A DNA stretch of 64,000 nucleotides from Atractiella rhizophila (GCA_021432655.1 MU271323.1:4851-68850); one strand, 5' to 3'. Positions 1,741-44,764 are shown, numbered from the stretch's first letter. Numbers and translations are program-made. Notes: generated from the letters alone by a model not told the origin.

Positions 1741-2529
1741 NNNNNNNNNNNNNNNNNNNNNNNNNNNNNNNNNNNNNNNNNNNNNNNNNNNNNNNNNNNN
1801 NNNNNNNNNNNNNNNNNNNNNNNNNNNNNNNNNNNNNNNNNNNNNNNNNNNNNNNNNNNNNNNNNNNNNNNNNNNNNNNNNNNNNNNNNNNNNNNNNNNN
1901 NNNNNNNNNNNNNNNNNNNNNNNNNNNNNNNNNNNNNNNNNNNNNNNNNNNNNNNNNNNNNNNNNNNNNNNNNNNNNNNNNNNNNNNNNNNNNNNNNNNN
2001 NNNNNNNNNNNNNNNNNNNNNNNNNNNNNNNNNNNNNNNNNNNNNNNNNNNNNNNNNNNNNNNNNNNNNNNNNNNNNNNNNNNNNNNNNNNNNNNNNNNN
2101 NNNNNNNNNNNNNNNNNNNNNNNNNNNNNNNNNNNNNNNNNNNNNNNNNNNNNNNNNNNNNNNNNNNNNNNNNNNNNNNNNNNNNNNNNNNNNNNNNNNN
2201 NNNNNNNNNNNNNNNNNNNNNNNNNNNNNNNNNNNNNNNNNNNNNNNNNNNNNNNNNNNNNNNNNNNNNNNNNNNNNNNNNNNNNNNNNNNNNNNNNNNN
2301 NNNNNNNNNNNNNNNNNNNNNNNNNNNNNNNNNNNNNNNNNNNNNNNNNNNNNNNNNNNNNNNNNNNNNNNNNNNNNNNNNNNNNNNNNNNNNNNNNNNN
2401 NNNNNNNNNNNNNNNNNNNNNNNNNNNNNNNNNNNNNNNNNNNNNNNNNNNNNNNNNNNNNNNNNNNNNNNNNNNNNNNNNNNNNNNNNNNNNNNNNNNN
2501 NNNNNNNNNNNNNNNNNNNNNNNNNNNNN
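1741..2529. other. Assembly gap (789 N)
   Basis: Run of N. Confidence 1.
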
Positions 2530-3109
2530 CATCTCTGAATTCTCCAAACACACTCATCCAGTCAAACCCTCCATTCTATTACTTGCATCACAATGAGGTT
2601 GAATAGATGCATTGGCAATGATACCAAGGGAGAGTTGGGAGGAGCGGCGGGAAGGGAAGAAGGTTGAACCCATTGGATAGAGTTTTGAGGCGAGCCGGGC
2701 AAGTTCGTGATAATGAGAGTAAGTGGCAGGTGCTGTAACTTGGAACGAGGATTCAATGATTTGAATGAACGGTGTGAGATTTTGATAGAGCCGGTGCACA
2801 TAATTGAGGCTGCAACTTGATTAGGACGTAGGACGTAGAAAAGAATGAGGATCACTTACTTAATTGTGGATTTTCTGGTATCAGCAGAAACCAGCACCTC
2901 GTCACTTGGATGAGCAAGAGCATTCCACAAGCCCGTGAATATTGCACCGACTGGTTGACCCTTCTCTTTCATATGCTCAACTTCCTTTTGATCCCATCGA
3001 GAATCTGAACTTTTTGGAGGAGTAACAGTTGTCAATGAAAGAAACTCGGAAACTGCATTGAAGGCATCTACAAAAGCTTTATTTGCAAATTGAGGACCAA
3101 AGGGAATAT

Positions 3110-3896
3110 NNNNNNNNNNNNNNNNNNNNNNNNNNNNNNNNNNNNNNNNNNNNNNNNNNNNNNNNNNNNNNNNNNNNNNNNNNNNNNNNNNNNNNNNNNN
3201 NNNNNNNNNNNNNNNNNNNNNNNNNNNNNNNNNNNNNNNNNNNNNNNNNNNNNNNNNNNNNNNNNNNNNNNNNNNNNNNNNNNNNNNNNNNNNNNNNNNN
3301 NNNNNNNNNNNNNNNNNNNNNNNNNNNNNNNNNNNNNNNNNNNNNNNNNNNNNNNNNNNNNNNNNNNNNNNNNNNNNNNNNNNNNNNNNNNNNNNNNNNN
3401 NNNNNNNNNNNNNNNNNNNNNNNNNNNNNNNNNNNNNNNNNNNNNNNNNNNNNNNNNNNNNNNNNNNNNNNNNNNNNNNNNNNNNNNNNNNNNNNNNNNN
3501 NNNNNNNNNNNNNNNNNNNNNNNNNNNNNNNNNNNNNNNNNNNNNNNNNNNNNNNNNNNNNNNNNNNNNNNNNNNNNNNNNNNNNNNNNNNNNNNNNNNN
3601 NNNNNNNNNNNNNNNNNNNNNNNNNNNNNNNNNNNNNNNNNNNNNNNNNNNNNNNNNNNNNNNNNNNNNNNNNNNNNNNNNNNNNNNNNNNNNNNNNNNN
3701 NNNNNNNNNNNNNNNNNNNNNNNNNNNNNNNNNNNNNNNNNNNNNNNNNNNNNNNNNNNNNNNNNNNNNNNNNNNNNNNNNNNNNNNNNNNNNNNNNNNN
3801 NNNNNNNNNNNNNNNNNNNNNNNNNNNNNNNNNNNNNNNNNNNNNNNNNNNNNNNNNNNNNNNNNNNNNNNNNNNNNNNNNNNNNNNNNNNNNNNN
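3110..3896. other. Assembly gap (787 N)
   Basis: Run of N. Confidence 1.
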
Positions 3897-4269
3897 AATG
3901 ACCGGAGTCGTTTGTGATTGCAAAGTGGAGGGCTGTGGGTGAGAGGAGAGGTGGTGTGAGCTGGAATTGACGCTGTCGAAGCTCGGTTGAAGAGGAAATG
4001 GAGGGAAGAATCAAGGAGAGAACACTTGGTTCTTAGATGCAGAAGCGCGAAGCCTCTGCCTTCCGCTTCCACCACATTACAGTTGACTCTCTGTGTCACC
4101 ACCCCTGGCCGCCCTGGGTTTCAAAACGTCAGGGCTATTCTTGGCAGCCAGTGGTGGCACAGGGCGCGGCATTTGGCTTGTTTCTATCTGTTCTGTGCAC
4201 CCTTCAGCGCAGCTTCGGGTGCTGCAACCATTGTATACCTTACAGAAAAGGTACATACTCATTACACGC

Positions 4270-12899: not shown

Positions 12900-15800
12900 C
12901 CAGCTAAGAAAAGGGTGCCCCATACAAAGCCCATCTCCAAGCTTGGGGCATTCAGAGCAGGTGGCCATGTGATCAGCACTGGCCCTGACAATGAAGGTTG
13001 GCGAACCATCATTGCACACCCACATCTACAGGCAAAGCGGGCGAGGGAGGCAAAGCTAGCAAGGCTTGCTCTGAACAAGCAGCCAAGGGTCAAGCCCCAC
13101 CCGATCTCTCCTGCGTCAGCAGGACCAACAAAGTTGCAGAGACCAGTCAGTCTTCGTCATATCAGTCTGGGTATGCTGAAATCTGCAACGCGACAAGCTA
13201 GGCCCCCAGAATACGTTCGTCTTCACTCACTCCCCCTCGAAGAGCTCCTGTCACGATTTACCCACGATTTCGAAAGCAACTGGCACGAGTAGGAGAAACA
13301 AACCGCAAAAGAGTGCAAAGAGAAATAGTACTTCTGTTGACCATGGAGGGAAGAGACGTGGTGGGACATCCGCTAAGGTGGGACAAGGAGGGCATGAAGG
13401 AATATCAAGGAAGAGGGGAAGTGGAGGGGCTGGTGGGGGGGAATCGAGCGAGGAAGATCGGCACCCGAGACAGAAACGTGGGATTACGGACGTAGCGAAG
13501 TGGAGAAGAGAGCGAAGGAGAAGAAAACTCCAGCCGCAAAGAAGAGAAAGACTGAAGGGAAGAAGAGGGTAGGGAAGAAACTGGTCAATATGGACTGGGA
13601 AGAAGCGTTACGGTCAGCGATATTCATCCTCATTGGGCTTGCTGACCATGGTGCAGCGTCATGACACCAGAGACAAGCAAGGGAGGGACAATCAAGCTCC
13701 CATTCAACTTCATGTCTCCACATCTAGGGTAAGTAACACCGTCTGGATGATAGAGCTAATAGTGCTGCAGGAGGATCACGTTGGAAGATGGAAGCGTCCG
13801 TCTACGCCAGTTCACCGACTTTCCCACCTTGGCCCCACTCTTCTTGTGGTACGAATTTGGATATGAGCCATCGGCAGAACAAGCGAAGAAACATGCGTTA
13901 TCCCAGGCAACAATCGATTCGCTTACAAATGGAGCCGCCTTCATCGACAAGTACAAACAAAACACGGCGGTGGCCATCGATCGTCGAGGGTATCAACTTG
14001 AGGACCTGCCTCCTGCCCTTTGCCAGGCCAAATTCTGCAAGGAAGTGGTCAAATCCATCTTCTACAAAAAAAGCAAACCAGTCCATGTCGAAATGATACG
14101 ATTGGCACACGAATTTGGAATGGTACCCTGGGCACACCTCCATCACTACACAGAAACCACCAAAGTGGATCAAGCGATTTATGGGAACCCCGCTGGAAGC
14201 TTTGTGCACATCGATAGGCTTGACCCCACCATGGCAAAGGTGGGGGCTGAGTGAAAATCACATTCAAGTGACTGAGAAAGATCACAGGCCAAAGTCATGC
14301 TGAACAACTGCCAACCGAAAACAGCAGATCAGGCATGGAGCACTTGTCAAGCCAGAAGGATCACCATCACAAAGCTCTGGTTTGGTTATGAAGGTGAGTC
14401 CTCACATCTTTGAGACAACAGGCTGACCTACTCGACAGCAGAAGACAAGGAAGGCAATCTGGACAGGTACTGCGAGAAAGCCGCTCAGGCCGCGTTCGCA
14501 AGAAAAGTGTTCGAACCGCTGGCTCTCACGTTCCGTCGACAATACAACAGGGCTATGGAGAACTGGAGAGACATCACCATCGTCCTAGACAGTATGCAGC
14601 CCCAGTGCTTTTAGGCAAACTGACGATGAGGACAGAGTTGATGCCTAGCTGGGACAAGCCAGACGAGGAGAAGACGTTGGATGCAGAAACGGTCAAGGCA
14701 GATGTAAGGGATCCTCACCAAACAAGCACAGATTGACTCCATGAACAGCAAGCGATCGAACTCCTACACCTTTGCCGACATTTCATCTCAACATACTCCA
14801 CATGGTGTCTTGATCTCCGTCGACATCCCGTGTCTTTTCGAGAGAAGACCATCGCCTTTGTCATGGATCAGATCGAGGGATTCATCATGGACAAAAGAAT
14901 AATCCTCACGTCGTTGCAGAGCCAGGAACGTGGTGAGTGTCTCTGCTCCATAGCGACCATATATGGAGAGATGGACAGGTACGACGGCGCTCATGTCCAG
15001 CAACATGAAGTTTGAGATGGAGGACGACGAGAGGAGCGCCTTGGCCATGGAGTGGAACTTTGGAGCCAGTGCGAGCAATGTGGAGGAGATTTTCACTTTG
15101 ATGGAAAGCCCATCCTTGGATGGAGTAGCAGAGAAGACAGTGTGGGCGATGGAGAAAGCTTTGGCCGGAGATCTCGGAGTGAATGAGATTGCCACGCTCA
15201 TGAAGGATGAAGTCATGACGGACATCGGTCTAGAGACAGACAAACCATTCCCAAGTTTCTGGTCAACAGTCTACCCCATCAAGGACCAGAAAGAAAAGAA
15301 GCTGGGGGACCTGGGGGAAGGGGAACCCTGCGATCTCTTCGGTCACCAAGTCAAAGGAATCCACTCCATCGTGAAAGGACTCCATTCTGCCACCGACTCA
15401 CAGTTGGCGCGGGCAGAACATCAATGTCGGTTCCTGTGCGATTTGGTCGGTCTCGGAAAGACCATGACTGCGACAGGGACCTTCGCCTATCTGCACCGCC
15501 TTTACAAAAACACCTCCACCACCCCAAACCTGGACAAGGTCCGCGACGCGGTAGCACATGGGGTCCTCAACTATCAAGGAGAATACAATCCTCCAGCAGC
15601 AACACATGCTGTCAAAATCCTTACCACGGTTTGGGAAGAGATCTGTGACCAGAAGTCTCGAGAGATACAAGGAGAGGTTTCCCAAGATTACTTTGCGCTC
15701 GCCAAGTCCGCAGTCCATCGCATCGCAATGCTTCTCAAGGACAAGCCCGCTGGATCGACCCTTTGAAGAGACGAGGCGAAGACACCCTCAAGTACGCCGC

Positions 15801-17200
15801 TCTTCTGAAAGAGAAAGCCAAGATAGCACTCACCGGTTGCACTTTCCCACCATTTCTGAGTAAGCCTCCTGCAGACCACATCTAAGCTCATGTTTCATTC
15901 AGGAGACACACCCGTCTTTGCAGGGGACGGATGGATGAAGAATCTTCCCTCATTACTCATAGTTCCTCATAACCTCATGAACCAATGGAGGACAGAAATC
16001 GATCGAGAACAAAATGGATCCCTCCTACCTCTGATACCTCGTCTATGGCGACGACGTCCGTTCTCGTGCCACCTTTCACAAGAGTCACAAGAATCTCTTG
16101 GAGGGAAAAGAGAAGGACGCCTCCAGCATAGTCGTCATCATTTCCGACAACACCTTGACAACAGAAGTGGATTGGCTGGAGGGCGAGAACAGGATCGACA
16201 TCTACCGGGTACGAGAGAAGTCAGAGGCTCACAAGAAAACACCTTCCATCTTTGACTATCGCTTTCATCTTGCAGTGGTGGACAAACATACACCCATCGA
16301 ACAAAGGGGAAACTCACAGCAGCTGTTCACCAGGCATGCTGCAGGGCCCAGGCGGTGCTCGCCATCACCGCCACTCCACTCTTCACATGTGTGGAAGTAA
16401 GCACCCTCTTTTTATAAGATGCAGCTAACAACCAGAAAAGGACATCTTCGTGCAGGTCCTATCACTAGGACTTGTCTAGGCGATAAACAGCAGTATATCT
16501 CTATAGACATGGATTAGGCGAAAATATGAAAGGAAATAGGATAGAGAACGAACCTATTGGGACCACAGCAGTCAAGAAAAAGTTCTTGGACCGTGCCCAC
16601 ACCATGGGATTGCCATAAGTGGTCCTAAGACTGCCCCTGGTGCCTCGACACCGATACCAGGCTACATGATACAGTTCATAGCACCTCCTACATCCAAAGA
16701 TGAGTAAGATGGCGCTAATATGAGACAGGAATCGAGAGAACTCACCTCTCCTCCCCTGGGTGAAGCAGAACAGGGAACTGTTCATCCATAAAGCATACTA
16801 CAGAGTTGACGATATATGAATTCATGAGGGTGGAGAATTCATCACTGATGAGGATCATAAGAGAGAACCAAGGGGATGTTCTCATTCTCTCCCATGACCC
16901 AATGCTTCACTGTGATGAAACCCACAAAGATCAGAAAAGATAGGAAGGTACACAAGCAAAGAACGTACCTGCTTTTGGAAAAACATTGTGACAGAGTTGC
17001 CATTGAAACCAATCTTAAAGCTTCAAAGCCATAACAATCTATGAGATCTAAAAGGATAACCAGTACTTAACAGAAGAAAGGTGTAAAGAATTGAGAAGAA
17101 CACCCACCTTTCATTGATACCTTGCCCATGACCAGATGGATCCAAAGAAATAGAGTATTTCTCTCTAACAGCATCAAACAAGGTATGAAGGGACGTCACA
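12900..17200 (+). pseudogene. Large intron-containing gene with a SNF2/SWI2-family ATPase domain, decayed
   Basis: SNF2 motifs in order: LFGHQVKGI (Q motif), FLCDLVGLGKTMTA (Walker A), LLIVPHNLMNQWRTEIDR (motif Ia), FHLAVVD (Walker B), AITATP-like (motif III, frameshifted). Short GT..AG intron-like segments near 13729, 14393, 14705, 15859 and 16397. Boundaries approximate. Confidence 0.75.
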
Positions 17201-17882
17201 TTGCTTCCAGACATGATGGAAAGTCTGTAGATTGGTGGAGAAAGGCCACACATAGCCAGAGCAGTTTATATACCCTTCTCCCCCTGCCATAAGGGGCCAT
17301 TGCTTATGCAGCTTAGTAGAAGCTCCTCACAGCCTTTCAGGCTGAATTTTCGGCCACAAATCAACGCAGTGGAGCAATGTGTACGCCCCACAAAGCAGGA
17401 GCTCCACCTATTAGCCTAATGATCAATTAAAATCATCACACCATCCATTCAAAACGAGGAGCCTCGCTGATGAAATGATGCAAAAAATAGGGATCCCACA
17501 GCACTTTGCCATCGAAAAGAAATGGAATAGACGCCTCAGGACTCTCCATGACCGCCCTGAATCATCCAGAGCATCCCCATTTAGCACAAGGAGCATATGA
17601 TGCATTGCTGCCTCATCTTGAGGAACAGGGAAATATAGGAGAGACAGCCCATAGAGGGGGCATCAGGACCCTTTGAGTGACCAAAAAGGCGCTACAAAGA
17701 CCACATTCCACCCTATTTCCTTCTACATAAGGACTCAACATTGCAATGAATAAAGAAAACACAAGAAAGAACCTCAGCCTACGCTGAAGCGCAGATAACA
17801 ACTCTGCATGATGCGATGGGCAATCCCCATCAATTCCTTCACTTATGAACCACCCAGAGTGCCTCCCAAAGAGCGCTCACCA

Positions 17883-17941
17883 TCACCAGAACTGAAGAAG
17901 CCTTAGCGAAACAGGATCTAACCAGTCTTGTCTTCTGGTGA
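17883..17941 (+). ncRNA. Type I hammerhead ribozyme
   Basis: Stem I TCACCAGAA (17883-17891) / TTCTGGTGA (17933-17941), 9 perfect bp. Core CTGAAGA (17892-17898), short stem II (A)GC-CTTA-GC, then GAAA. Stem III ACAGGAT/GTCTTGT includes two G-U pairs. GTC cleavage triplet, predicted cut after C17932. Confidence 0.85.
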
Positions 17942-18623
17942 AACCCCTCATCTCATACCCCACTATTGTTCCTCCCCCTCTTGCTCCTAGTTATTTACTG
18001 TTGGAAGTGAACATATCAAGAAGGGAGAAGCTAAACTGTGAGTGTTTCGTCTTTGGTTCGCTTTGGAGTCCCACTTTGTTGGACTCTGATGGTTCTACCC
18101 TCTCCTATTGATGTTGGTCCCACCTTCATCCCTAACCCTTGTCATGCTGAAATATGCACATTCTGGACTGTACTCCAGGGGAAGCTACTGTTGCCCAGGA
18201 CATCTTTGGGACTCTTTTAGGCTTCCCTTCTCGCCTCTTATCCAATGAGGATTCGTTTGTCTTTACACTATCTTTCTACACATCAAAAATTCTCCCACCT
18301 GGTGGCGTCAGCCCCTCTATAGGTGTTACTCCTATGATCCTGAGCACAAAGCCTTGCATTATAGAGAGATTCCCTTTCACTGAGCACTAGTATACTCAGG
18401 ATAGGGTGTTCCAGTCACTCTATTATGGACACTGTGAACTAGGTGTTTTCGCTAGATTCACAGCTGGAGAGCGTTGGTCTCCTGATGGCCATCTAAGTGG
18501 TGGCCTGAAGGATTCCTCCTGCATTTCAATGACGAAATTTTCGTCCAAATAAAGCTAGCAAATATCAGTAAACACTTCTGATAATTACCTATACAGATAA
18601 CATGTCAGATATCGATATGATAG

Positions 18624-20427
18624 ATCCCAGGAAAAGGACTAAGCGGAAGAGAAAAGGACCTCCTCAGGCTAGGCAATAAATTCATACCTTGTCCGAAACC
18701 ACGCCTAGACGTCATCGATGAAGCCATCGAAAACTTCAAACGGACCATAAGGCTCAAGCATTACTTTCAGGACAAAGAAAACTCTGAGATCCCTCGATGG
18801 AGGACCATGAGCGCCTGGCAACCCCCTGAGAGCTCTCCAGAGCTGGAAAGCGCCCTGAGGAAACTAGAGCATCCTCTGAAAGCGAACCTAGACTCTGTAC
18901 ATAGTGCAGACAAGCAAAACATGTCAAACCACTCAAAAAGAGGGCTAGAATGCTTGTTGCAACGACCAGACATACTTGTAATATTGACAGACAAGAATCT
19001 CGGCTACGCGGCCATCCATATGGGCTGGTATGTCTCACAAGCACTGATGCACCTCGAAAATAAAGATGTCTACGCTGTGACAAATGAGGAGAGGGCCCTT
19101 GCTGCCACGAGGGACGAACTTGACTCGCTCATCGAGATTGCTGACGAGTTGGAACTCGAAGGACACATAAATCAAAATGAGTTCAAGTGGCTCTCCCAAA
19201 GGAAAGAATGGGTCATCCCAAAGTTCTACATCACCGCAAAAGTCCACAAGGCGAGCCCTTCTAGTCGCCCCATATGCCCAACAATGACTTGGGCCACGTA
19301 CTTTATGTCGCAGTGGTTGGCAGAACAGTTCCTGCCCTTTGAGCGCACCTCCCCTACTGTGCTCAAAGACAGCTCAGAACTCCTCCGTATCTTTGCCTTC
19401 GATCGCCCCCTCCAAGACAAACTCAGGAACAGCAAGCAACGAGGAGAGGAACAGCTCTGGATCGTGACTGCTGACGTAGAATTACTCTATCCCAACATCA
19501 ACACGGAAGACAGCATCAGGAGCATAGATGAGATATTGCAATCGGATGCCAAACTGGAACGCCTGAAGAGGGAATTCTCATTCGTATGCTACAGTTCATG
19601 CTACAACAGACCTACGTCCAGTTTCAGGGCAGGTGCTACCAGCAGAAGAATGCACTGCCATGGGGACTCCAGTTGCAGTCCAGTATGCGAATCTATACCT
19701 CCACCTGCTCGAGAAGGACCTTGTTGAACGCTGGCTCTCCACCAACAAACTCATACTCTTCAAGAGATATATTGACGACATCTTTGCCCTCATCCTTGGA
19801 ACACGGGACCAAGCGGAAGCCTTCATCAACGAGTACAACTCCTTGAAACCCACGATACGTCTCACATACGATCTGTCTGTCCACCAAGTCTGTGGACTTC
19901 CTTGATCTCACCATCTATAAGGACAAGGAACTGCCCTCTCACGGACGGATGGCCACCAAGATCTTTCAAAAGAAGATGAACCAGTACCTCTACCTTCCCT
20001 TTCACTCGTACCACGAGCACAAACAGAAGACCGGGTTCATCAAAGGAGAAGCCATCAGATACATCAGGGCGTGCTCAAGTGTCAAAGAGTTCGACAAAAT
20101 GATCTCACTCTTCACGGTACGCCTCCAACGTAGAGGATACCCCCTCAAGATCATAAGGTCACAACTATCTATGGTCAGGCACAAAGATCGCCTGCGCTAC
20201 CTAGAAGAGAAGGAGAATAAGAAAGATATACTCCCACTCCTCTTCAAAGTGGAGTCGAACCCATTCACAGAAAGGGACAGGATTCGCCCCCCACTCGATG
20301 AATTTGCCTTTACTGCCACAAACTTGGCATGCCCCCATCAATCTCTGAAAGAGCGAAAATATGCTTCAAGCTACCCCCCAAACTGCACGTCGCTGTATGC
20401 AGAGCTAGAAAGGCCAAGGGATACTGA
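18624..20427 (+). pseudogene. Penelope-like element (PLE) reverse transcriptase, no GIY-YIG endonuclease seen, frameshifted
   Basis: LLRLGNKFIPCP, ILTDKNLG, PKFYITAKVHK..SRPIC, VLKDS, VTADVELLYPNI, AMGTPVAVQYANLYL, FKRYIDDIF, VDFLDLTIY, YLPFHSYH, GFIKGEAIRYIRACS, RRGYP. Ends at ...KLPPKLHVAVCRARKAKGY* (TGA 20425-20427). Frameshifts near 19585, 19630, 19890 and 20350. Confidence 0.92.
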
Positions 20428-20566
20428 ATCTAATTGATATGCAACATGATATCTGTATAGAAAGAATTACCTCAGAAAAATAATACAAAAGATTGAACCC
20501 CTGATTACGCCTAAGAAGAATAAAGGCTGATGAAATAACCAAAAAACAGATTCTAAAGAAGAAAAC

Positions 20567-21523
20567 ATGTCTTTCCACACAAGAGCAAGGACCCTCCAGG
20601 ACCATATCGAAGAGGCATTTCGCTATGCAACGAAATCAGCACACAACGCCTTCAGATTCTCCTTACGCAGCGCCCTCGAAGAGGACCTCCCAGAGGTCCT
20701 TAACACGCTTGACTTCGATGGACTCAACTCGCGCAGCCAGAACCTCTTCTGTCGCTCCTTTGAACAGGCCATGGGCATCGGGCCGCTCGACGAAGGCGAC
20801 GCACACCCTTGAGACGGATATAGAAACCTGGTCGACTACGTCAAGGCGATAGGACTGAGGTGGGAAGACTTTGTCATCTGCATCGACCTGGAGACCACAG
20901 GACTGAGCAAGCTCAACGACAATATCGTCGAGATCGGCCTCGTCGTCCTCCCCAAGCACCACGATCGCCACTTCTCCTTCAACATACGTGTCTTTCCTGA
21001 CCACGTCATCCCCAAACCAGCCAGCGATGTGCACAGGATCTACGACAAGGATGTCATGTGGTGTGCCACTTTTAGGGACATTGCACCCCGACTGCTCCAC
21101 TTCATCAAGAAATCGTCCGGAATCTTTGGTTACAACATAAAGGAATTCGACTGGCCCATCCTCGTGAGAGAATTCCAAGAGGTCGAGGTGGATATCGAGC
21201 CATACGAGAGGAAGGTCTTTGACCCCTACCAGCTCCTCAAACTCAGAAATACCCGATACGAGAAGTACCCTCGTCCCCAGAAGCTCGCCACCCTCTTCAA
21301 GAACGTCACAGGCAAGGAGCTCACGCACAACCATAACGCAATGGTGGACGCATATGCTGCGATGGTCGTCACGATTGACTGCATCAGAAATGACGAGATC
21401 TTCAAGGTGAAGAGCCTGTCCCATGCAGCGTGGCAATTTGATGATACCCAGAGGGCAATCGGCAAAAGGAAGAGACAAGAGGTCAGGGATGAGGATGAAA
21501 AACTCCATAGCGACTCTGAATGA
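20567..21523 (+). pseudogene. DEDDh (DnaQ / DNA polymerase III epsilon-like) 3'-5' exonuclease with one in-frame TGA at 20810-20812
   Basis: ORFs 20567-20812 and 21029-21523 share one frame. ExoI CIDLETTGL..DNIVEIG, ExoII FGYNIKEFDWPIL, ExoIII HNAMVDA. No introns are needed. Confidence 0.9.
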
Positions 21524-22059
21524 ATGAAAGCTGTTTACAGATACAAAGTACCATGTTAAAGAACCAAAGGCGAAACACTACTAGCGAAAGCAGAAAGGCT
21601 AGACATGAAAGACAAACAAATCACCCAAACCTGTCGCCCAACGAGCTGGCGATGAGGACACCCTGAAGCTGGTGTCGACAAGAGACTTACTGAGCATAAT
21701 GGGGACACTTAGATGTTCGCCCCTGTAAAGAGATCATGCTGGAACCTTGCTACTTAGCTTGGGGTCACCACGTCGGGGGGGCGCCGTGCAAAAACCCTAC
21801 CGGACGATGCGGGTATGCTCAGCAGGAATCGGCGGGGTAATCCGAATGCTGCAACATCTCATAAGAGGTCGTAGGGACATTGGCAATGGACCCTTCTAGA
21901 GGCGACCATGAGGTGGGTCTCTCTCAGGAGAAGCCTTCACATCGAACCCATTGGGGGGAAAGATGTGTCGTCGTTGACGAAAAGAAAAATCTCCATCCTT
22001 GGATGCAAGACTGAGGCGAGGCGATCTCCCCTCGCAAACTATTTTGGTCGTCAGGTCTG

Positions 22060-22219
22060 AGCTGACGGGACTCAACGGTGCGTTCCGTCCTGTCAGGTTA
22101 GTTCCGTCAGTCAGAGCCTCGCGACTGGTCTGGTGGGGCTCTGGCCGTGACCCTAACTCCGTTCCCCAGCCAACTTTGACTGACGGAACAGTTCCGTCGC
22201 AAAGGAATAGTAGTAGTAG
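22060..22219. repeat. Cluster of GACGGAAC/GTTCCGTC inverted repeats ending in (TAG)4, a probable element terminus
   Basis: 13-bp inverted repeat GTTCCGTCAGTCA (22101-22113) / TGACTGACGGAAC (22177-22189); palindrome GACGGAAC-A-GTTCCGTC (22182-22198); then TAGTAGTAGTAG. Confidence 0.7.
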
Positions 22220-22852
22220 CCGGGAGGATCTTTCGGACCTTAGAACAAGGACAGGATGGCTTAAAAGTCACTGATGCTGGGAGCGCAAATAAGGGGACAA
22301 TCGTGTGCCACTTACACTCTGCGGAATGATGTCTCGATGCCCTGTACGTGATGGCTGTCACCCCTGGAAGTACAGTCCTCCGAGTTGCGCTCCTCTGCTT
22401 AGCACAAATTGCAAGCTGGCTGAGTTGGGTTCCGTTTTCAGCTTGAAGTCTTCGGGGTTGATTGAAATTTCAATGTGTATGTTTGGACTATTCGTAAGCT
22501 TTTAATAAAATAAATATCATTCAATGAATCCACAGTGTTATTGTTGCCATGTCAAAAATTTGCAGAGAACACAGGCAACGAGGAAATTTATGAGGAAATG
22601 GTCAATTTGAGTAAGATACATGGTGGCTCTACAAAGCTCCAAGTTCCAGCACAGAGTGCTCGAGGCCAAGGAGAAAATCATGCTTGTGCATCAGTTTTAT
22701 GTGGAATGCAGTTTTGAGGCTCATCTTAGCAATGATTTCTGGATTGTTAAGGCACCTATTCGTTCTGTTCCACCTCGCGATCATGTCAAGATGTGCTGAA
22801 GCTGAAGAGTATTGCTTCTAGTACTCTCAATTGACGGATAATACAATCCGAA

Positions 22853-25110
22853 CTATCGAGCCCCAGAGCTCCTGAGCCTCTTGGATCCATCTGCAACCAT
22901 TGCCAATCCTTTCCTCTTGTTACTTGAGCCATGAGCATGAGCATCCATAGGCTCTGCCTTGTCCTGCTGACTTTGCCATATTCCACTCTCATCCTTGAGA
23001 GCCTTCAATAACACCTGTGACATAAACGTATGAGTAGTCATTCGTTTAATCCTCCTGTCCGCCTTCTTGTCAGCTCTCATCCTCATCTTCTTCACCATCT
23101 CCGGCGTAATCTCCTTGGTCGCCTCCTCTGTCGACTCATCTGTCTCTCCATCCGATTGGAGGTCATCCAGAATTTTTTCCACTAAATCAGGACGAGGCAC
23201 CAAGCGATCAGACAGGCTGCGGAAGAGGGTCCCGAGTACATCCCTAAGCTCGTTAGAAGCGAGTTTGAGGCGGTTCACGCCTCCTAAAATGATGCCTTCT
23301 CGACCCCTAGCTGTCGTAGTGGGGTTGTTCTGCATTCTGTCGAACGGACGGAGGAAAGAAATGCGATCTTCGTTAGATAACTCGCTTCGTGCATAGGATA
23401 GGACGGTCCAGGTCAGAGCGTAAACGAACGACTCAATATCGTCTTCTGGCTTCTGGCGAATGTTCTGGGTTGAGCCCATTTCTTCCAAGAGTCGACGAGA
23501 CATGAACTCGTAAGTGCCCTGTTCCATAATTGATCACTGCACGGAGCTACCAGGAAAGTAAGTACCGTTCGCTCTCGGGAATTGTCACGTTCGCTTTCCT
23601 TCTTCGCAAATTCCCAATCAATCAAATACCCCTTTGGTCCTTCTTCAATTGGGCCAAGAAGGACGTTCCCAAAAGAGATATCACGGTGCAGCATTTTGAG
23701 TTTGCTCCAGGCAGCAAAGTGAGCTGTGAGCGGCCAACCATGGCAAATCAGATTCATTTACGTGAAGACAGCATCAATTCACCTTCAAAAGCATCTGAAA
23801 AGCCTTTCACAAGCTCGTAACTAGATGTAAATTTGTCGAGTGGCCGTCCTACTTTAGCCAGAACAATTCGGTAGTGTACCATCTCCCTCTCGTCATCCTT
23901 GCCTGTCAATAGCTTGACGTGTTGAAGGTTGCCCCTTACATCGCCCTCAGCAATAACCTGGAGGATATTTGGGACTTTAGACTCGTGCAATTCGGCATAG
24001 ACTTCACCTTCCCGACGATATTGGGTGTGTCTCCATGCGTCCTTGAGCAGGACGAGGGATTTCTGTTCAGGGTCGTAAGCTTCGAAGCATCTTGTTCCTC
24101 GGCCGATAGGTTGGTTGTGACGAAAGAGGAATGGTTCCGAAAGGTAGAACACCTTGTTTTCTACCTCCACCTTGAATAATGGCTTGTTGGTTGTAACTTT
24201 GAGCTTTGCTTTAGCCGCTTCGGAATGATCGTCATCCTCAAGAAGTTTCTGCATCGTCACGTCGTGTCCTCTTTCAGCATCGGATGCATGCGTATAGCGC
24301 CAGAAGAATTCGCGGAGGTGAGCGGTCGTCACGTAGTTGAACAAAGGGGTCACGAAGAAACCGGCACGAGAATGGCAGAGGAGACGAGCAAAGTGTTCTC
24401 GAACATAGAACGAGAAGACTCTCGTTCTTTGTTGGGAACAAAAAATGACGCTACTGTAAATCGTGATTTGACCGCGCGTTAATTTCGAAGTCTGTGAGTC
24501 GCCCTCGAGCACCTTGCCACCTTTCTCATCGCGAAAAGGTTCATCCTTGCGTGCCTTCTTAAACTCGCCAAACGACTCGGCGCTCTTCATGACAGTAGTC
24601 GTCGCCCCGTAAAAACTATAGAGAAGCAGATCAGGTTTGACGCCACCGACCCCAAGCACGGGGATAAAATCCCTGTCGATGCTCTCGCTGGTGTTGACGA
24701 GCTGCCACGGTTGATTGAGGAAAGGTTTCATATACCGTATCTAGAGTGATATATTTGAAAGGGGTTGTGAAAGATTCCAAAAAGAACAATGCACTTACGA
24801 ACTCATCGTAATGGGTAGGTTCGGGCCCTGACACATCAGGTGCTGGTGGCGAATCTGGGAGCTCTCCGTGCTCTGGCAACAGATTGAGAAAGTCTTCAAC
24901 AGACACCGTGATGTATTTCCCCTTCATATCTCCGCAGACGAAGTCGTAGGCACCTTCATTCTCTGTAGCAGGAATGATTTGACCGTGATGGTTAGAGCCG
25001 CTGGCTAGACGCTTCGGGGTCGGTTTTGTTAGAGAAGGATCAGCAGAGGTGCTGGCGGGAGGAGTAGAAGCACGGGTACCGGCCGAGTGAGGTGGAAGAG
25101 TCGTGGCCAT
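22853..25110 (-). CDS. Fungal-type protein kinase (FunK1 / Pkinase_fungal), about 4 exons, apparently intact
   Basis: KPDLLLY, GQITIYSSVIFCSQQRTRVFS, IGRGTRCF, LLKDAWR, HYRIVL..VGRPL, MLHRDISFGNVLL, GYLIDWEFAK, GTYEFMS, DDIESFVY. Short introns near 24740-24798, 23720-23780 and 23520-23565 join the ORFs. Confidence 0.9.
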
Positions 25111-27597
25111 CGAAGGATAGCAGATAAAAACAAAGTGTGATGACGGCTTATTGTCCTTTGTTGGTGGATTCAGTTACATTACGCTGTGACTCTGACTCAG
25201 GGCGTGGCGTGGCGTGTGTCGGGGGCCACGAATATTATATTCCCAATTGAACTACCCCCATGGCAGCATTTAAGGTTCCCATCATGTGACTATGGAGCAA
25301 ACCTACGCAAGTGCAGTGCACTGACCCACCACCTCTCCCTCCCTCCACGCTCCGTCTCCTCCTCACTCCCTTCAATTACCACGAACAGCTTTCGATGCTT
25401 CCTCCGACAACGGGGCCGCTTGATAACCAACAAAATCGACCAGATCATGGAAGCTTCCTTCGACGACAACGAGGACGAAATTTGTGAGAGGAACAGGTTT
25501 TAGGATGTCCTTGTCAGCTTGGAATGGGTTTCAACAAGGTGTGTGGTCTCATATTCACGGAGAAAAGGACGTAATTTGGTTTTGAATGGGGGAAAGGAGC
25601 TTTTTTGTTGCAACCAGAAAATACTGCTGGAAATGAAGGAACGACTGTGGAATGGATGAACAGGTACGCACTTACGCTTATACTTACTTGAAATGACTGA
25701 ATTTGGTGTAAAGCTTTAATTCCCGTCGAAATCACTTGAAAATGACCGGAACGGCGACGACGAATGGACTTTCGGCTCTGTCGAATAAACGCCCCTTGGA
25801 TCGAAGTAGAATAGCACCAGGTGTAGCTGTAAGCCCTTTCCTATCTCTAACAGTTCGTAAATCTACATCACGAATGGCCTAACGTACTTTAGCAGTCCGA
25901 CGCCTCCACCTCCAGTCCGCGATGACACCCTCTTTCGCCTCGATTGTCACCTACTTTCAACTACCCCTCACGCTTTTCGCTCGCTGCGATCTCCCTGTGT
26001 GGACGAGTGGTTGATGTGTGACGAAACTCACTTGCAGAGCAGTGGCAAAGGAGGAGTTGCCACGGATTTGGAGGACTAAATTAGAAGGAGCAACTCATAT
26101 AATCACAAAGTGTTGACAGATAAATGAGATAATGGAAAATAATTCTTTCATTTATTCTTATTCTGACTTAAAAGTACAAAGGAACATGGAGAAGTAACTC
26201 ATAGAGTGCAGCGAAACTGTTCGACTCACATATCTCGATTCTGGGGTCCCCATCTCAAACTAATACGCTATAGTGCTACCCGAAGGCTCTTTCGGTGCAC
26301 AACAACATTCTCTTTTTCTTCTATTTCGTTGATAGTAAGCTGAAGGCGCTGAGAAAGGCCCTCACCGTGTTCGTGTTCGCGACGAGGATCCGTGCACGCA
26401 CACACGTTCCACAAGCACCATCGGAAACTCTTTATCACCTTCCTTCATTCCTCCATTTCATCCTCACATCCACATCCACTGTGAGCAATCCTTCGACAAT
26501 TAGAATTTTGACAGTCAGTTATTGGAAGTGTCGACCCAGCAACAAACGTTGACCGAGAGACCGCAATGGGCTGATGACAGTCCCCCATGTATTACATGGG
26601 TTCTCAAGACAAGCCGAACGAGGGAACCAACCCTTGCTCTTTGGTTGGTGTCTTAAAGTGATAATGTTCCCAAACTAAAGAGGTTGAGCAGCAGAACAAC
26701 CTCCAGTTCATTTCTACAATCCTTATCCTAGTCCCAGAATCATATATCAGGTCGATGCGTCGTAGACTGCTTTCACTCCACACCTCCCTCTTCCTAGACA
26801 AGATCTCAACACACCATCTGTGCACAATGTTCAAGATAGCGCACAGGATGAAGGTAATCGACAGTTCGGCTGGACGAAGGGAGTGAAGTTTGTGAACGAC
26901 AATTTAAAGTTGAAGAAGGAACAAATGCAGGAAGAATTAAACAAGATGGAGCACAGATGCTCTCATTGCAAGAGGTGTGAAGAAAAATGAAAAGGATGGT
27001 CAACTTCTATACCCGAATATCCATCCTATGATTTTTGCACCACTCATTTATGTTCGAGAGGTTGTTGTTGAGTTGACGACTCCTCCTTTCAAGCAAAATA
27101 AATTAAGACGAAAATCATATAGAAATATTAAACAATAGTCGATGAAAATCAAATTCAGGTAAACGATGTTCTAGACAAAATAAAATGCGTCATCACAATA
27201 GTTGAGCACATGGTGCCTGCGGTGAAGGTGAAGTTGATGACAACTGGGGCTCTTCATCACCGCATAGATGGTCGACGGGGACGGGACGGTGAAGAGCCCT
27301 AATGACAACCAACAACACTAATTTTGCAAATGACTCGGGAGATCGTAGCCATCTAGAGATCAACCAATTCAGCTTATTTTTGCATTATTGGAAGATCGAA
27401 AGTACCCAAGATGTCATAATTATCGTTTAGTGTATTTTTCAACCGTTAATACGGCGAGGTGAGTTACGAGGCACCATCAAAGATTTCAGCCGTGCAATCC
27501 GGTGCATAATTTCAGGACGTAATAGATTGTGTGCCTAAATACCGGCCAGAGCCGAATGAAAAAGACGATCGACGATGGCGGTGTGATTCAAAAGTCC

Positions 27598-33477: not shown

Positions 33478-36400
33478 TCTATTCTTCTAAGATTCATCAG
33501 TTCTTGGCGTGAGTCATAAAACACACTTTTAAGCCCTCATACCTCCCTTACCAGACACATTGAAATGAAATGAAGCACACCATCTTACTGCATATGTTTG
33601 CGCCTGTCTGAAAGTGCAAGGAAATTTTATTTTAAAGTCATGAAAAAAAGTGTTCCCTCCTAGATTGGATGGATTTGAACCAGTGCAGAGGCCCACAAAG
33701 CCAAGAATGCCGTGCGCAGCAGCCCCACAAATTTCATGCCGTGCCTGAAGTGCCGCACATGCCAGAAGCGCTGCACGCGACTTCTACAGCGCATTTTGGG
33801 TTTTCTCAGGTTATGTGCCAGAAGAACATGTTTGTCTACCATGAGGGGAAGAAAGTGAACACATGTGAGTTGGAATATGCTCCACATTATGTTCTCAAGC
33901 CATCTTAGAATCATCATGCCCCGTCCTAAAAAAAATGGTGCAAACCAACTCATCCATGCTTAGCAACAAAGGTGGGAGGAGAGCCCATCAGATATACCTC
34001 AGGTTGCTCCACGTCACTCAGAAAGACGTCATGCAGGATTGCTGCAGCGCTTCCAGGTTACACAACCGACACCACCTCAGCATTTGACCCGTCAAATTCG
34101 TATGCAGCAACAGCGGGAGGATGAACCTCCTAGAGGACGCCGATGACGACGGCAGCCAGACCCTCCACCTTTACATGAAGAATGCAATGATGGTTCCTCT
34201 GATGGACAACAAGGGGGAGTATTTGAGAATACTGATCTGCCTGATCAAACAGTGGTAGCTCCTCGGGATGCAAGACGAGATCAGCATCCTTTTCTTGCAT
34301 TCAACTACTTACCAGACACAGTGGAGGCAATCCGGCTTTCGGGCTGGAATGAATTCTTTTGCTCAGAATGTGGTGCCTTCATTGGCTTGAGGAACGAATA
34401 GCCAGGAGCTCTAAGCAGAATCCAAAGTTTTCTAACTGTTGTTCTCTGGGAAATATTATTCTTCCTGCTTATGAAGAACCACCAGCCGAATTACATCAGC
34501 TATTAATCAACCCAGATACCCGAGAATCAAAGCAGTTTCGAGAGAATATCCGGTCCTACAATAATGCTCTCTCCTTTACTTCTCTTGGAGTCAAGCGGCC
34601 ACCTATTCCTGGGCAAGGAGTTTACTCTTTCCCGATTCAAGGGGAGCTGTGCATCGCATTGGAGCTTTGCTACCTGATTCTGATGGAGATGAAAGGTTCG
34701 TACTAATCTATATGCTGGATTCTGAAGAGCAGATTCGACAAAGAATAGAGACTGTTGGACAGCACAAACTCAAGGAAGGGACTTTAAGGAAGTTACAAGA
34801 AATGATGTGGCGAGTCAATCCCTGGCCAGAAATTTATAAAACAGCAAGAGAGCACATGGGGGATAATCCGATTTTGAACCTCCACCTTCGAACTATCGAT
34901 CCTATTGATCGGGACCCTCGACGATACAAGGGGCCAACAGGTCATGGCATAGGAGAAATTGCAGTGCTTCTCATTGCCGAACAGTCAGGAGCTATGGCAA
35001 GTATCACAAGGGACATTGTGGTTAAACTTCGACGTCCTGATGGTCAGAATTTCTTTGAGAGAGTTAGTGATCAGAATGCCAACTACCTCTACGCTTCCCA
35101 CTTTTGTTCCCCTACGGCGAGCAAGGTTGGCAGGCATACATCCCCCTCAGTCATGGAGATCTGCTTCTATGGGGTCCACGAGAAGAATATCGAAACGATG
35201 AAGGACGAATAGTTGGTAATATGGGAGAACAGAAACACGTTACTCAGATGAACTATTACTCTTACCTGCTTCACCTAAAGAAGGACAAATTCTCTCTAAT
35301 TCACCATGGTGGCCGGCTGTTTCAAGAATGGTTTGTGATGCTTATGCTCAGATAGAAAGTGGACGATTGAGGTTCCTGAGGTACAATCAAGAACTTCTCC
35401 AAACTAAGTCTTATGCTGGACTTGGCGATGCATTAGAAGATGGTCGAGATGCTGCAGATGTTGGGAAGCAGACCATTCTACCATTGTCACACACAGGAAG
35501 TCCCTGCCAGATGAACCAGCAATTCCAAGATGCTATGGCGATTGTCGGGAACAGAGGTTCACCTCCTATCTTCACAACTTTCACTTGCAATCCATGGTGG
35601 CCAGAAATCATAGAAGCTCTACTTCCTGGGCAAACAGCTGCTGATCGACCAGGCTTAGTCTCTAGAGTTTTTAACACAAACGTCAAGGCTGACATGCAAG
35701 ACATCAAGGATAACACAATCTTTGGAAGGTCGGTCAGCTTCGTCTGGGTGATTGAATTTCAGAAATGTGGTCTCCCTCATGCTCATCATCCTTAATCCTG
35801 AAGATACCATCAGGGATGTTGAGGCAATTGATCACATAATGTCTGGCGAATTTCCTGACAAGGATATGAATCCTGAATTGTTTGAGATTGTCTACACTCA
35901 TATGCTTCATGGACCCTGTTAAGATATCAACCCAGATGCTCCATGCATGATAGATGATCCTAAAAATCTTGGAAGAAAGATCTGTGGCAAAGGGTTCCTG
36001 AAGCCATTCATGGAAGAGACATGCATCAACAAGGATGGCTATCCCACCTACCGTCGCCATAACAATGGATGTACCTTTCAGAAATCATGGAATGGATTTA
36101 TTTACAACAATCATTGGGTCATACCATTTAATGCTTATGTCCTTCGGCGCTTTATAGCTCATATTGATGTGGAACTTTGCATCTCCATCAAATCAATCAA
36201 GTACCTCTTCAAATACATCTACAAAGGAAATGATCAGGCATAACCTGTCCTTCATTGTGCCCGAGGTGATGTTAGGGTGGTGGATGAGATTCAAGAGTAC
36301 TTGGATGCTAGATTCATTGGATCTTCTGAAAGGTGGATGTGCCTTTCAGTGGAGTTATTTTGGTTCTTGGTGGTAAGTGAATCAAGTCAAAGAGTTCATG

Positions 36401-43000: not shown

Positions 43001-44764
43001 ATCACAGAACTTGCATCCTTCAACTTCACTCTTCTACACCGTCCTGGGCGGAACTCCGCAAAACCAGATGCGCTCAGTCGGCGACCGGATCACAAACCGG
43101 CAACTTGCCACAACTTCGACGTAGTATTACTCCCAGAACGTTTTTTCAACACGGATGGTATCGCCATCAACGTGGCTGGGAGCACGGTTGCGCTCACAAG
43201 ACAAATGTCGGAGTTGAGTATACTAGAACGCGTGAAAAAGGTACCTGAACGAAAAGAACAAGTAGTCAAGGCCTTGAGAGAGATCCTAGACGAACCAGTC
43301 GACGTGATTCGCCGACGGGAGTGGCAAGAAGTCGATGGCGCTGTCTATGTTCGTGGAAAACTCTACATTCCCCGCGACGACGAAATTCGCCGCTCGATTT
43401 TGCAAGACCTGCACGATTCGCAAATCGCCGGTCATCCAGGCGTAAAATCGACGACGGCTCTCGTAAAAAGGTACTACTGGTGGCCAGGTTTGGCGCATTA
43501 CGTTCGCCGCTATGTCAACGCCTGCCACACTTGCCACAGAATGAAAAAATTTCCTTCCCCACCTGTCGGGTTTTTGCAACCAAATGACATTCCCACACGT
43601 CGATGGCAAATTGTCAGCATGGACTTGGTTGGACCTCTCCCAGAATCTGGGAGGTTTGACACGATTTTCGTCATAGTAGACAGACTCTCAAACCGCTCCC
43701 ATCTCATCCCCACCCATCCAACGATGGATGCAGAAGGCCTTGCAAGGCTTTTTCACGATCATGTATGGACGTTACATGGACTTTACGATGTCGCAATTTT
43801 CGATCGAGGCAAAGAGTTTGTGTCCCAATTCACATCTGCGCTTTTTCGCCTATTAGGTATCAAAGGTTCACCATCGACAGCCTATCACCCGCAAAGTGAT
43901 GGTCAGACTGAACGTGTGAACCAAGAAGTTGAGCAATATTTGCGCATTTTCTGCAACCACCTTCAGGATAATTGGGTGGAAGGACTCCCCAATGCAGAAT
44001 TTGCGCTCAACAATGGCGTCAGTTCGGCGACGGGCATAACTCCATTTCACTCGATTGGGGTCAACACCCCCACATGGGCTTTGAACCCATCTCCGACGAA
44101 GACGTCCCAGCAGCGGCGCAATTCGTCGAAAGGATGCAAATCGCCAACCGAGAAGCACAAGCAGCAGATCTCATGGCAAAACATTATGACAGAAAACGCG
44201 CACCAGCGCCCGAATATCACGTCGGGGATTTCGTCTGGTTGAGCGCGAAAAACATCAAGTCGAGGAGACCTGTCAAAAAGTTGGACGACAAATGGCATGG
44301 CCCTTTTCGCGTTCTGCAAGTTTTGCGTCCCCTCAACCTCAAACTCGAGTTGCCATCCTCATGGAAGATACATCCAGTATTCCATGTGGGCCTAATACGA
44401 AAAGTCAACGAAGACGACATCCCTGGTCAAGTCCAGTTGCCTAAACCACCTCCGGAATTAGTGAATGGAATTGAGGAATGGGAAGTAGAAAAAATTGTGG
44501 ATGGGAAATGGTTCGGTACCCAAAAGAAAGTTTTCAAATATCACGTTCGATACATAGGGTATTCACCATCTGAAGACGAGTGGATAAACATTGCAGATTT
44601 GGAAAATTCGCAAGATGCTATAAAAGACTATCACACTGCACATCCTCTTGCAGTTCGTCCCGATTCCATACCGAACTCCGCAAAAAATCGCTCAAATAAG
44701 TGTTTTCGTAACCTTTGATGAAAACGCGCTGGAGGGTCTTCCTCACTTTAAGGGGTCCTATGAC
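40045..44764 (+). mobile_element. Ty3/Gypsy chromovirus: 5' LTR, partial gag, PR-RT-RNaseH-IN-chromodomain, 3' LTR deleted
   Basis: LTR about 40045-40520 (TGAC..GTCA). Protease ALVDSGATTSFIS; RT FSKIDLRKGFNN and YIDDILI; RNase H EVDASNFATGAVL and TDHKNLEYF; integrase H..GHPG..CHTC, SMDLV, PQSDGQTERVNQ; chromodomain EWEVEKIVD..YHVRYIGYSPSEDEW. PPT-like AAGGGG then only TGAC. Confidence 0.95.

Follow-up and report, generated by a model that had tools for sequence, protein, structure and literature searches.

In the genome of Atractiella rhizophila, a root endophyte of the Pucciniomycotina, we have identified a single dead unit of an endonuclease-free Penelope-like element (PLE) in which a reverse transcriptase (RT) gene is followed on the same strand by an open reading frame (ORF), ORF2, for a putative DEDDh exonuclease. 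The unit lies at positions 17239-22216 (plus strand) of the 64,000-nucleotide stretch GCA_021432655.1 MU271323.1:4851-68850, which is called the window below. The evidence makes us confident that this is a decayed two-gene unit of an endonuclease-free PLE, multi-copy in the fungal genome, and that it comes from a clade of elements in soil organisms whose parts keep one order on one strand. We are as confident that the 5' half of this order comprises a hammerhead ribozyme variant, a spacer of ~0.1-0.2 kb, a short C-strand telomere-like motif and a leader of ~0.5-1 kb; the case is just as good that the 3' half comprises the RT, a gap of 0.1-0.5 kb, a DnaQ/TREX-like DEDDh exonuclease and a variable 3' region.

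An earlier description of this DNA, made from its letters alone (hereafter the sequence-only reading), had listed four parts in order on one strand, namely the hammerhead, the RT, the exonuclease and a non-coding tail, and all four are present on the plus strand in the order that it gave. What it did not report is that both genes of the unit are broken. The RT has suffered at least four frameshifts and ORF2 carries an in-frame TGA, and the window copy is therefore a dead fossil. Self-BLAST of 16500-23000 against the window revealed no second copy or internal repeat there, and Tandem Repeats Finder returned nothing relevant in 15500-23000.

A Penelope-like reverse transcriptase without an endonuclease domain

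The RT pseudogene occupies 18624-20427 (plus strand) and comprises an N-terminal DKN motif, the RT core and the thumb. The hallmarks of PLE RTs are recognizable in it (LGNKFIP, LTDKNLGY, AKVHK..RPI and RYIDD, with a thumb that aligns with that of its relatives). In tblastn comparisons with five intact relatives, the homology passes through frames 3>2>1>2>1 and begins at 18624, which matches residue ~260-390 of these proteins; no counterpart of their 260-390 N-terminal residues is detectable in the window. The preceding low-copy spacer (18140-18623, plus strand) contains no detectable coding sequence, its longest open frame being 79 amino acids (aa) with no Pfam hit at E ≤ 1, and in the organism's own contigs depth reaches its minimum, near single copy, in the bin 18340-18623.

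At its other end, the window RT stops exactly where intact relatives end, in end-to-end alignment with relatives of 612-625 aa. The intact relatives, which range from 612 to 976 aa, are likewise devoid of GIY-YIG. A profile search over 1.84 billion representatives yielded 10010 hits at E ≤ 1e-3, with 347 proteins at E ≤ 1e-30, and among the listed top representatives (P0022-P0043, 620-944 aa) the match reaches the end of the profile 0-10 residues from the protein C-terminus. Since the RT match of the relatives ends at the protein C-terminus, the GIY-YIG domain has not simply been deleted from the window copy; judging from these sequences, the RT family as a whole is without a C-terminal GIY-YIG. 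The sequence-only reading had described a PLE RT that ends after the thumb without GIY-YIG, and had named intact copies encoding this domain as one of the findings that would overturn its view; the full-length relatives are endonuclease-free as well. A GIY..YIG regular expression gave zero hits, including in 125 second-tier proteins, a search that was thus without a positive control. In Pfam, six full-length relatives match only RVT_1, and weakly; the RT relatives carry PF28514 (named DUF8422 by the Atlas) together with this weak RVT_1. For the N-terminus of the RT the Atlas provides broad leads only, to rotifer, arthropod and streptophyte clusters.

A DEDDh exonuclease gene downstream of the reverse transcriptase

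ORF2 (20567-21523, plus strand; 318 codons, with its ATG at 20567 and its stop at 21521-21523) begins 140 nt after the RT stop (20425-20427). It matches Pfam RNase_T (E = 7e-18) and its catalytic motifs DxE, N..FD and Hx4D are intact, which confirms the DEDDh exonuclease ORF that the sequence-only reading had placed 140 bp past the RT. The nonsense codon is the TGA at 20810-20812 (TGG>TGA), where the A. rhizophila paralogs P0001 and P0003 have a tryptophan. Identity to three NCBI proteins of A. rhizophila is 92, 86 and 82%. Across an alignment of 34 exonuclease rows, D73, E75, D161 and H222 are invariant and D227 is nearly so.

Searched by sequence, the PDB returns only Pol III epsilon (1e-4) and an entry titled exodeoxyribonuclease III (8e-4). 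The AlphaFold model of paralog P0001, made with this alignment, reaches a predicted local distance difference test (pLDDT) score of 85-97 over the catalytic core but drops to poor values in the first 60 and last 40 residues. The best Foldseek matches to this model are TREX2, TREX1, the exonuclease domains of DinG and DnaQ, and Pol III epsilon (E down to 3.5e-10), all of them DNA 3'-5' exonucleases. From this modelled fold, ORF2 is of the DnaQ/TREX-like DEDDh type, with a putative enzymatic activity. It shares all three Exo motifs and the fold with the DnaQ, TREX and ExoX exonucleases, but differs from them in being encoded by a retroelement, in its N-terminal extension of ~100-130 aa, which is helical and not conserved, and in the basic tail at its C-terminus. 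Unlike several of its nearest stand-alone relatives, it has no ExoX-like C-terminal domain (PF20600). These nearest stand-alone relatives (~31-38% identity) look bacterial, and one is named from a Chitinophagaceae metagenome-assembled genome; the leads of the Atlas for the exonuclease are again broad only, to bacterial and phage clusters.

Linkage of the two genes in relatives and in the fungal genome

We searched 55 metagenome loci encoding RT relatives with the exonuclease proteins. A locus was considered to have room for the second gene when at least 800 nt followed the RT, and 30 loci of the close clade (L001-L039) qualify. An exonuclease ORF lies downstream of the RT on the same strand in 28 of these 30, at a distance of 120-500 nt (1519 nt in L033), and in none of the five distant RT loci with room. 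All of the ORF2s examined (25/25) are open and keep DxE, N..FD and Hx4D. Near-duplicates among the loci (L001/L014, L006/L013, L017-19) mean that there are fewer independent cases; the exonuclease-linked loci span three deep subclades. In an unrooted RT tree of 48 rows, obtained by a quick search, the window, 20 exonuclease-linked loci, L031 (which has no room) and L016 form one group (support of 99 in the Shimodaira-Hasegawa-like approximate likelihood ratio test, SH-aLRT), from which the window branches off first. The exonuclease is part of the element, and its adjacency to the RT is not due to chance. The co-occurrence of RT and exonuclease in the same order in relatives, which had been suggested as a check, is what these loci with room display.

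The spacer between RT and ORF2 is also multi-copy in the organism's own contigs. We used Logan contigs from two runs (X1 and X2) of one sample, at 80% likeness or more to window positions 15500-24000, an interval on which 463 (X1) and 619 (X2) contigs fall. The summed contig depth, which is a rough guide only, amounts to 562 (X1) and 1509 (X2) in the spacer bin, as compared with ~75-110 and 120-140 for flank contigs present in single copy. Contigs with sequence variants also extend across the spacer: 20435 T>C occurs in four of them, and a deletion 20378>20446 is seen as well. Pieces of the RT, ORF2 and tail with 95-99% likeness are found in the rhizosphere metagenome of a second study. Together, the linkage in the relatives and the multi-copy spacer uphold the proposal of a multi-ORF endonuclease-less PLE that includes the exonuclease.

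In some relatives (L017:5189-6547, L024:3053-4468, L016:3798-5162) a third ORF in the same orientation, 453-472 aa long, has a weak, F-box-like match in Pfam (7e-6 to 1e-3). It comes after the exonuclease, or in L016 after the RT, in a subclade with an 11.8-kb tandem period, and looks like a step towards Terminon-like multi-ORF units.

A hammerhead variant upstream of the reverse transcriptase

The minimum-energy fold of 17883-17941 (plus strand) is a three-way junction consisting of a 9-bp helix I, CUGAAGA with a bulged A, a 2-bp helix II, GAAA, a 7-bp helix III and then GUC. Cleavage is predicted between 17932 and 17933. By its sequence this is a type I variant of the hammerhead ribozyme, in which helix III is large and a bulged A precedes helix II on the 5' side; its self-cleavage is putative. 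It agrees with the published description of PLE hammerheads, which gives those of fungal PLEs as type I with a large helix III and notes a bulged base 5' of helix II in PLE hammerheads (PMC4209133). A descriptor scan (helix I of at least 6, helix III of at least 4 and helix II of at least 2 bp) finds this one hammerhead site in the window and zero sites in 200/200 random 64-kb sequences.

Clearly homologous motifs occur in the metagenome loci L021 and L033; in L021, GTATAAAT stands just past the hammerhead. With the window, L021 and L033 as seeds, a covariance model matches 13 more loci at E ≤ 1e-3 and, at 0.013, L023; all loci matched have the motif on the RT strand and belong to the exonuclease-bearing clade. 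The core CUGA(A/C)GA...GAAA is invariant in 15/15 sequences, and the cleavage-site base H17 is C or U. Across these 15 sequences, in an alignment that was fitted to the model and hence somewhat favours the structure, pairing is kept in 98.4% of cells and both sides have changed in 8 of 14 pairs, including 5 of the 7 pairs of helix III; helices I and III carry compensatory changes. None of 500 shuffles matches this pairing and covariation, and slid controls pair in 37-65% of cells. Helix II of the window copy has 2 bp (4 nt shorter), as against 3-4 bp in the relatives.

Rfam is silent on this motif. No hammerhead match was obtained in the window at the gathering score, in the 6.5 kb around the element or the 106-nt hammerhead stretch at E ≤ 10, or for any hammerhead family in 19 related loci. 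We do not take this silence as proof that there is no hammerhead, because the custom model and the covariation are strong. The variant defined here, supported by covariation in 15 loci, is thus overlooked by current Rfam models. Further upstream, a TATA-like TTTATATA is found at 17265-17272, ~26 nt past the unit start at 17239 and ~610 nt upstream of the hammerhead.

Unit ends and telomeric joints

The hammerhead lies in a terminal-repeat-like module (17239-18139, plus strand) resembling the pseudo-long terminal repeats (pLTRs) of PLEs, which is either an incomplete unit lying upstream or the family's own 3' end module and has a copy number far above that of the genes. Its end is formed by CCCTAACCCT (18130-18139, plus strand), a short C-strand telomere-like repeat 189 nt 3' of the hammerhead and the only CCCTAACCC in the window. 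Other copies end there: seven contigs per run continue past 18139 into unlike sequence, joints lead from 18139 to 22165, 22170 and 22183 via extra CCCTAA letters, and the summed contig depth climbs towards 18139. A truncated copy that begins at 17991 is capped by telomeric repeats, with (CCCTAA)4.5 standing immediately before it. One X2 contig joins 22214 to 17239, head to tail, with a period of 4976 nt.

The relatives have a similar layout, with the hammerhead 570-1165 nt upstream of the RT and on its strand in 10 of them. Overlaps of contig ends indicate head-to-tail periods of 7.8 kb (L001), 7.8 kb (L007) and 11.8 kb (L017), and place a downstream hammerhead ~740-790 nt before the next RT in L001 and L017. 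A C-strand telomere-like motif is located 90-190 nt 3' of the hammerhead in relatives and window alike. An exact CCCTAA(A) is present within 330 nt 3' of the hammerhead in 7/15 loci, window included, and L008 opens with (CCCTAAA)15 on the sense strand (2-106). By these Arabidopsis-type CCCTAAA repeats, the most closely studied of the metagenomic relatives have hosts with TTTAGGG telomeres, which are not typical fungi or rotifers. Short internal CCCTAAA stretches also occur ~1.7 kb past the exonuclease (L001:6183-6196, L004:6316-6329, L007:6748-6761, L014:4066-4079).

Since CCCTAACCCT, the site at which copies terminate or are joined to telomeric repeats, stands 189 nt past the hammerhead, this motif is probably the end module of an incomplete unit lying upstream, a pLTR-like repeat that extends to 18139. 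The sequence-only reading was correct in recognizing a hammerhead at 17883-17941, but the motif most likely belongs to the 3' end of the preceding partial unit and not to a 5' leader of the RT unit. In our best reading, the RT-ORF2 unit follows the 17239-18139 module and has lost its own downstream module. A partial upstream copy in this pLTR arrangement is given as the rule in PLEs, and a PLE RT is reported to initiate internally, downstream of the hammerhead, in vitro (PMC4209133 and PMC11167929 for the former, PMC11167929 for the latter).

The non-coding tail (21524-22216, plus strand) contains a single CCCTAA at 22151-22156, and copies end at 22216, past which 9-10 contigs per run continue into unlike sequence. 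Its last ~160-185 nt (~22055-22216) are present in very high copy number (the bin 22032-22315 has a depth of 18875 in X1, ~200x single-copy). The 22032-22216 segment has a fixed 3' end at 22216, variable 5' ends (22055, 22141, 22165, 22170, 22183) and finishes in (TAG)n; it could be a heavily 5'-truncated retroelement 3' end or a separate repeat resembling a short interspersed element (SINE). The sequence 16352-17238 is repeated too, and is contiguous with 17239 in some contigs.

It is conceivable, if on balance unlikely, that two elements lie side by side here: 17239-18139 would be the 3' end of a separate, abundant and possibly non-autonomous (retrozyme- or SINE-like) element, and the RT-exonuclease element an unrelated neighbour ending at 22216. 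This would fit the diversity of the sequences downstream of 18139, the short forms that link 18139 via CCCTAA letters straight to 22165-22216 and so bypass both genes, the depth of 17772-18139 (several-fold that of the genes), the near-single-copy state of 18340-18623, and the repeated 16352-17238 upstream of 17239, a position that other contigs cross. It is less easily reconciled with the same hammerhead standing at its distance before the RT, on the RT strand, in the 10 related loci and again ahead of the next RT in L001 and L017, with the 22214-17239 joint, which is as expected of a single tandem unit, or with the pLTR arrangement being the rule in PLEs according to the passages cited above. 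The one-unit reading leaves three things unaccounted for, namely the copy number of 22055-22216, the diverse flanks after 22216 and the repetition of 16352-17238, and it is for these that the two-element explanation keeps the share of probability that we give it.

Several further observations weigh against a single two-gene PLE unit with a telomere link. Past the end of the tail at 22216 the flanks are diverse and no hammerhead module follows, and the last ~180 nt of the tail exceed everything else in abundance by far, so that the true termini may be either 17239/22216 or 18140/18139. The clear (CCCTAAA)n of L001-type relatives lies 1.4 kb upstream of the hammerhead and does not adjoin it. No run of two or more telomeric repeats exists in the 64-kb window, in line with the earlier remark that there is no telomere array nearby. 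The window copy is itself non-functional, having no recognisable RT N-terminus and a hammerhead with a 2-bp helix II in addition to its frameshifts and nonsense codon. Two loci, L016 and L037, have room but no exonuclease; the nesting of L016 beside L017/L018 suggests secondary loss of the gene. Finally, the Atractiella exonuclease shares only 17-23% identity with the metagenomic ORF2s, as against 26-36% with stand-alone bacterial-like proteins, and falls on the side of the latter in the best-supported split of the exonuclease tree, so that a single capture is not shown. In this unrooted tree, the 16 metagenomic ORF2s cluster together (98), as do the three Atractiella sequences (100), and since the two clusters adjoin each other, one ancestral capture is possible.

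Relation to known elements

Known families are compared here as they are portrayed in the cited papers. Coprina, the endonuclease-deficient PLEs of fungi, Selaginella and diatoms, resembles the window unit in the lack of an endonuclease, the fungal host, the C-strand telomeric repeats at copy ends and, following the account of fungal PLEs in PMC4209133, the type-I hammerhead whose helix III is large. It has been reported in Pucciniomycotina (Microbotryum; PMC8557442). However, Coprina is described as single-ORF, or as a coiled-coil ORF plus RT in Ascochyta (PMC13159263), and by this description the window unit, with a DEDDh exonuclease ORF after its RT, is set apart from it. The second ORF is conserved in 28/30 loci, which departs from the RT-only organization of Coprina.

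The Athena elements and Terminons of bdelloid rotifers also combine an endonuclease-deficient PLE RT with co-oriented accessory ORFs that include a DEDD-superfamily 3'-5' exonuclease, and share with the window unit the hammerhead and reverse-complement telomeric repeats, head-to-tail arrays and telomere-capped 5'-truncated copies (PMC6431247, PMC5408684). Their 3' end consists of a hammerhead followed by reverse-complement telomeric repeats (PMC6431247). The window element has a 3' end of this type, as seen in the series of hammerhead, 189 nt and CCCTAACCCT, the ends at 18139, the telomeric joints and the (CCCTAA)4.5 before 17991. The accessory exonuclease ORFs of Athena, Terminons and rotifer long terminal repeat elements are, in contrast, of the DEDDy (RNase D-like) type (PMC5408684, PMC6431247), whereas that of the window is DEDDh (DnaQ/TREX-like, Hx4D): its ExoIII motif is Hx4D, as in all 25 relatives, and its Pfam match is RNase_T and not RNase D. 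Moreover, Athena and Terminons reach 40 kb with many ORFs, whereas the window unit has ~5 kb and two; the period of 4976 nt and those of the relatives, 7.8 kb (L001, L007) and 11.8 kb (L017), are far from tens of kb, and the relatives L017-L019 with 11.8-kb periods have the extra F-box-like ORF. The window unit differs as well in its fungal host and in its hammerhead-to-repeat spacer of 189 nt. To call the element Terminon-like, as the sequence-only reading did, is therefore an overstatement given its ~5 kb, its two genes and its DEDDh, not DEDDy, exonuclease.

Canonical endonuclease-bearing PLEs (Penelope/Poseidon, Neptune) have the same RT architecture (DKN motif, core, thumb), a hammerhead in flanking pLTRs, tandem partial copies, and copy ends shortly downstream of the hammerhead (PMC11167929). 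Unlike them, the window RT has no GIY-YIG at either end, and a separate exonuclease gene is found instead.

No PLE with a DEDDh or RNase T exonuclease was found in the literature searched, although the 2007/2017 primary papers, Repbase and supplements may describe one. The compact RT plus DEDDh clade spans a fungus and hosts with CCCTAAA telomeres, and may have been described before. Accessory DEDD exonucleases in PLEs, as the window unit and its relatives show, are not a rotifer peculiarity.

A possible role for the exonuclease

No other retroelements are as closely related to telomerase as the endonuclease-less PLEs, and the question is how these secure and prepare a primer end. The gene order and its conservation, the intact catalytic motifs, the covariation of the hammerhead, the copy ends and the telomeric joints are observations; every functional step that follows, including 3'-end trimming by the exonuclease for priming, we infer, taking Athena, Coprina and Terminons as analogues together with an endonuclease-bearing PLE whose RT has been shown to initiate internally. 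Units arranged head to tail would be transcribed into read-through RNA across their junction. Lacking an endonuclease, the element would prime on existing DNA 3' ends, and the RT could extend a free chromosomal 3' end, typically a telomeric G-overhang annealed to the C-strand repeat just past the hammerhead; annealing at this repeat would make inserted copies end there (18139 in the window). The hammerhead may process or fold the read-through RNA at the end module, and the exonuclease may trim unpaired or damaged 3' DNA back to a paired primer terminus, or proofread for the RT.

A bolder version, which we put forward tentatively as possible though not probable, is that the DEDDh exonuclease is a functional replacement for the endonuclease, trimming chromosome 3' ends, whether telomeric overhangs or broken ends, until they pair with the C-strand repeat in the RNA of the element and the RT can extend them. 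If so, two endonuclease-less PLE lineages would have recruited a 3'-5' exonuclease independently, that of the rotifer Athena elements being an unrelated DEDDy enzyme, and end-trimming would be a general requirement of telomerase-like, end-primed reverse transcription. The compact and widely conserved pair of an RT and a DnaQ-like exonuclease offers a simple two-protein system in which the coupling of 3'-end trimming to end-primed reverse transcription could be reconstituted.

The main functional rival to DNA-end trimming is that the exonuclease acts on RNA, where it would trim the 3' end of the template to the hammerhead/telomere-repeat module or degrade host small RNAs involved in silencing. 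RNase_T in Pfam includes RNA exonucleases, and trimming of the template RNA 3' end has been proposed for the DEDDy ORFs of Terminons; the nearest folds and sequences of ORF2, in contrast, are DNA exonucleases (TREX1/2, DnaQ domains, Pol III epsilon), and we consider an RNA substrate rather unlikely. The fold by itself does not settle the substrate. Very improbable, and rejected here, is a host or bacterial-derived gene that stands beside the RT by chance or by a local capture specific to this genome and is no functional part of the element: the stand-alone, bacterial-like character of the nearest non-Atractiella relatives (~31-38% identity) and one NCBI gene model, which names it a 'ribonuclease H-like protein' on a 300-kb contig, would suit it, but the same adjacency in 28/30 relatives with room, their open ORFs and conserved catalytic residues, the multi-copy RT-ORF2 spacer, and an exonuclease gene that is multi-copy and decaying like the RT contradict the syntenic single-copy host gene that the sequence-only reading had named as its own possible refutation.

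Genomic surroundings

The surroundings of the element are rich in transposable elements. Upstream, fragmented ORFs at 14954-16397 (plus strand) contain motifs that resemble SNF2 helicases by eye (LVGLGKT; LIVP..L..QW..E), for which Pfam gives nothing at 1e-4; these fragments, which the organism's contigs contain ~3-4-fold, break off at the start of the 16352-18139 repeat. On its downstream side the element is followed immediately by a Pkinase_fungal (PF17667) gene in several frame pieces (22856-25173, minus strand; ORFs 23416-24740), parts of which (23452-24000) are multi-copy in the same contigs.

Farther away, the window holds a Helitron_like_N domain (35220-35792), a Gypsy-type element with protease, RT, RNase H, integrase and chromodomain (40986-44715), a KDZ transposase with CxC1 (49620-51517) and an rva_4 integrase-like ORF (61020-61766, minus strand). 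Two runs of N, at 1741-2529 (789 nt) and 3110-3896 (787 nt), are assembly gaps in a low-complexity AT-rich stretch, in which the G+C content is 0.10-0.21 over 2001-4000.

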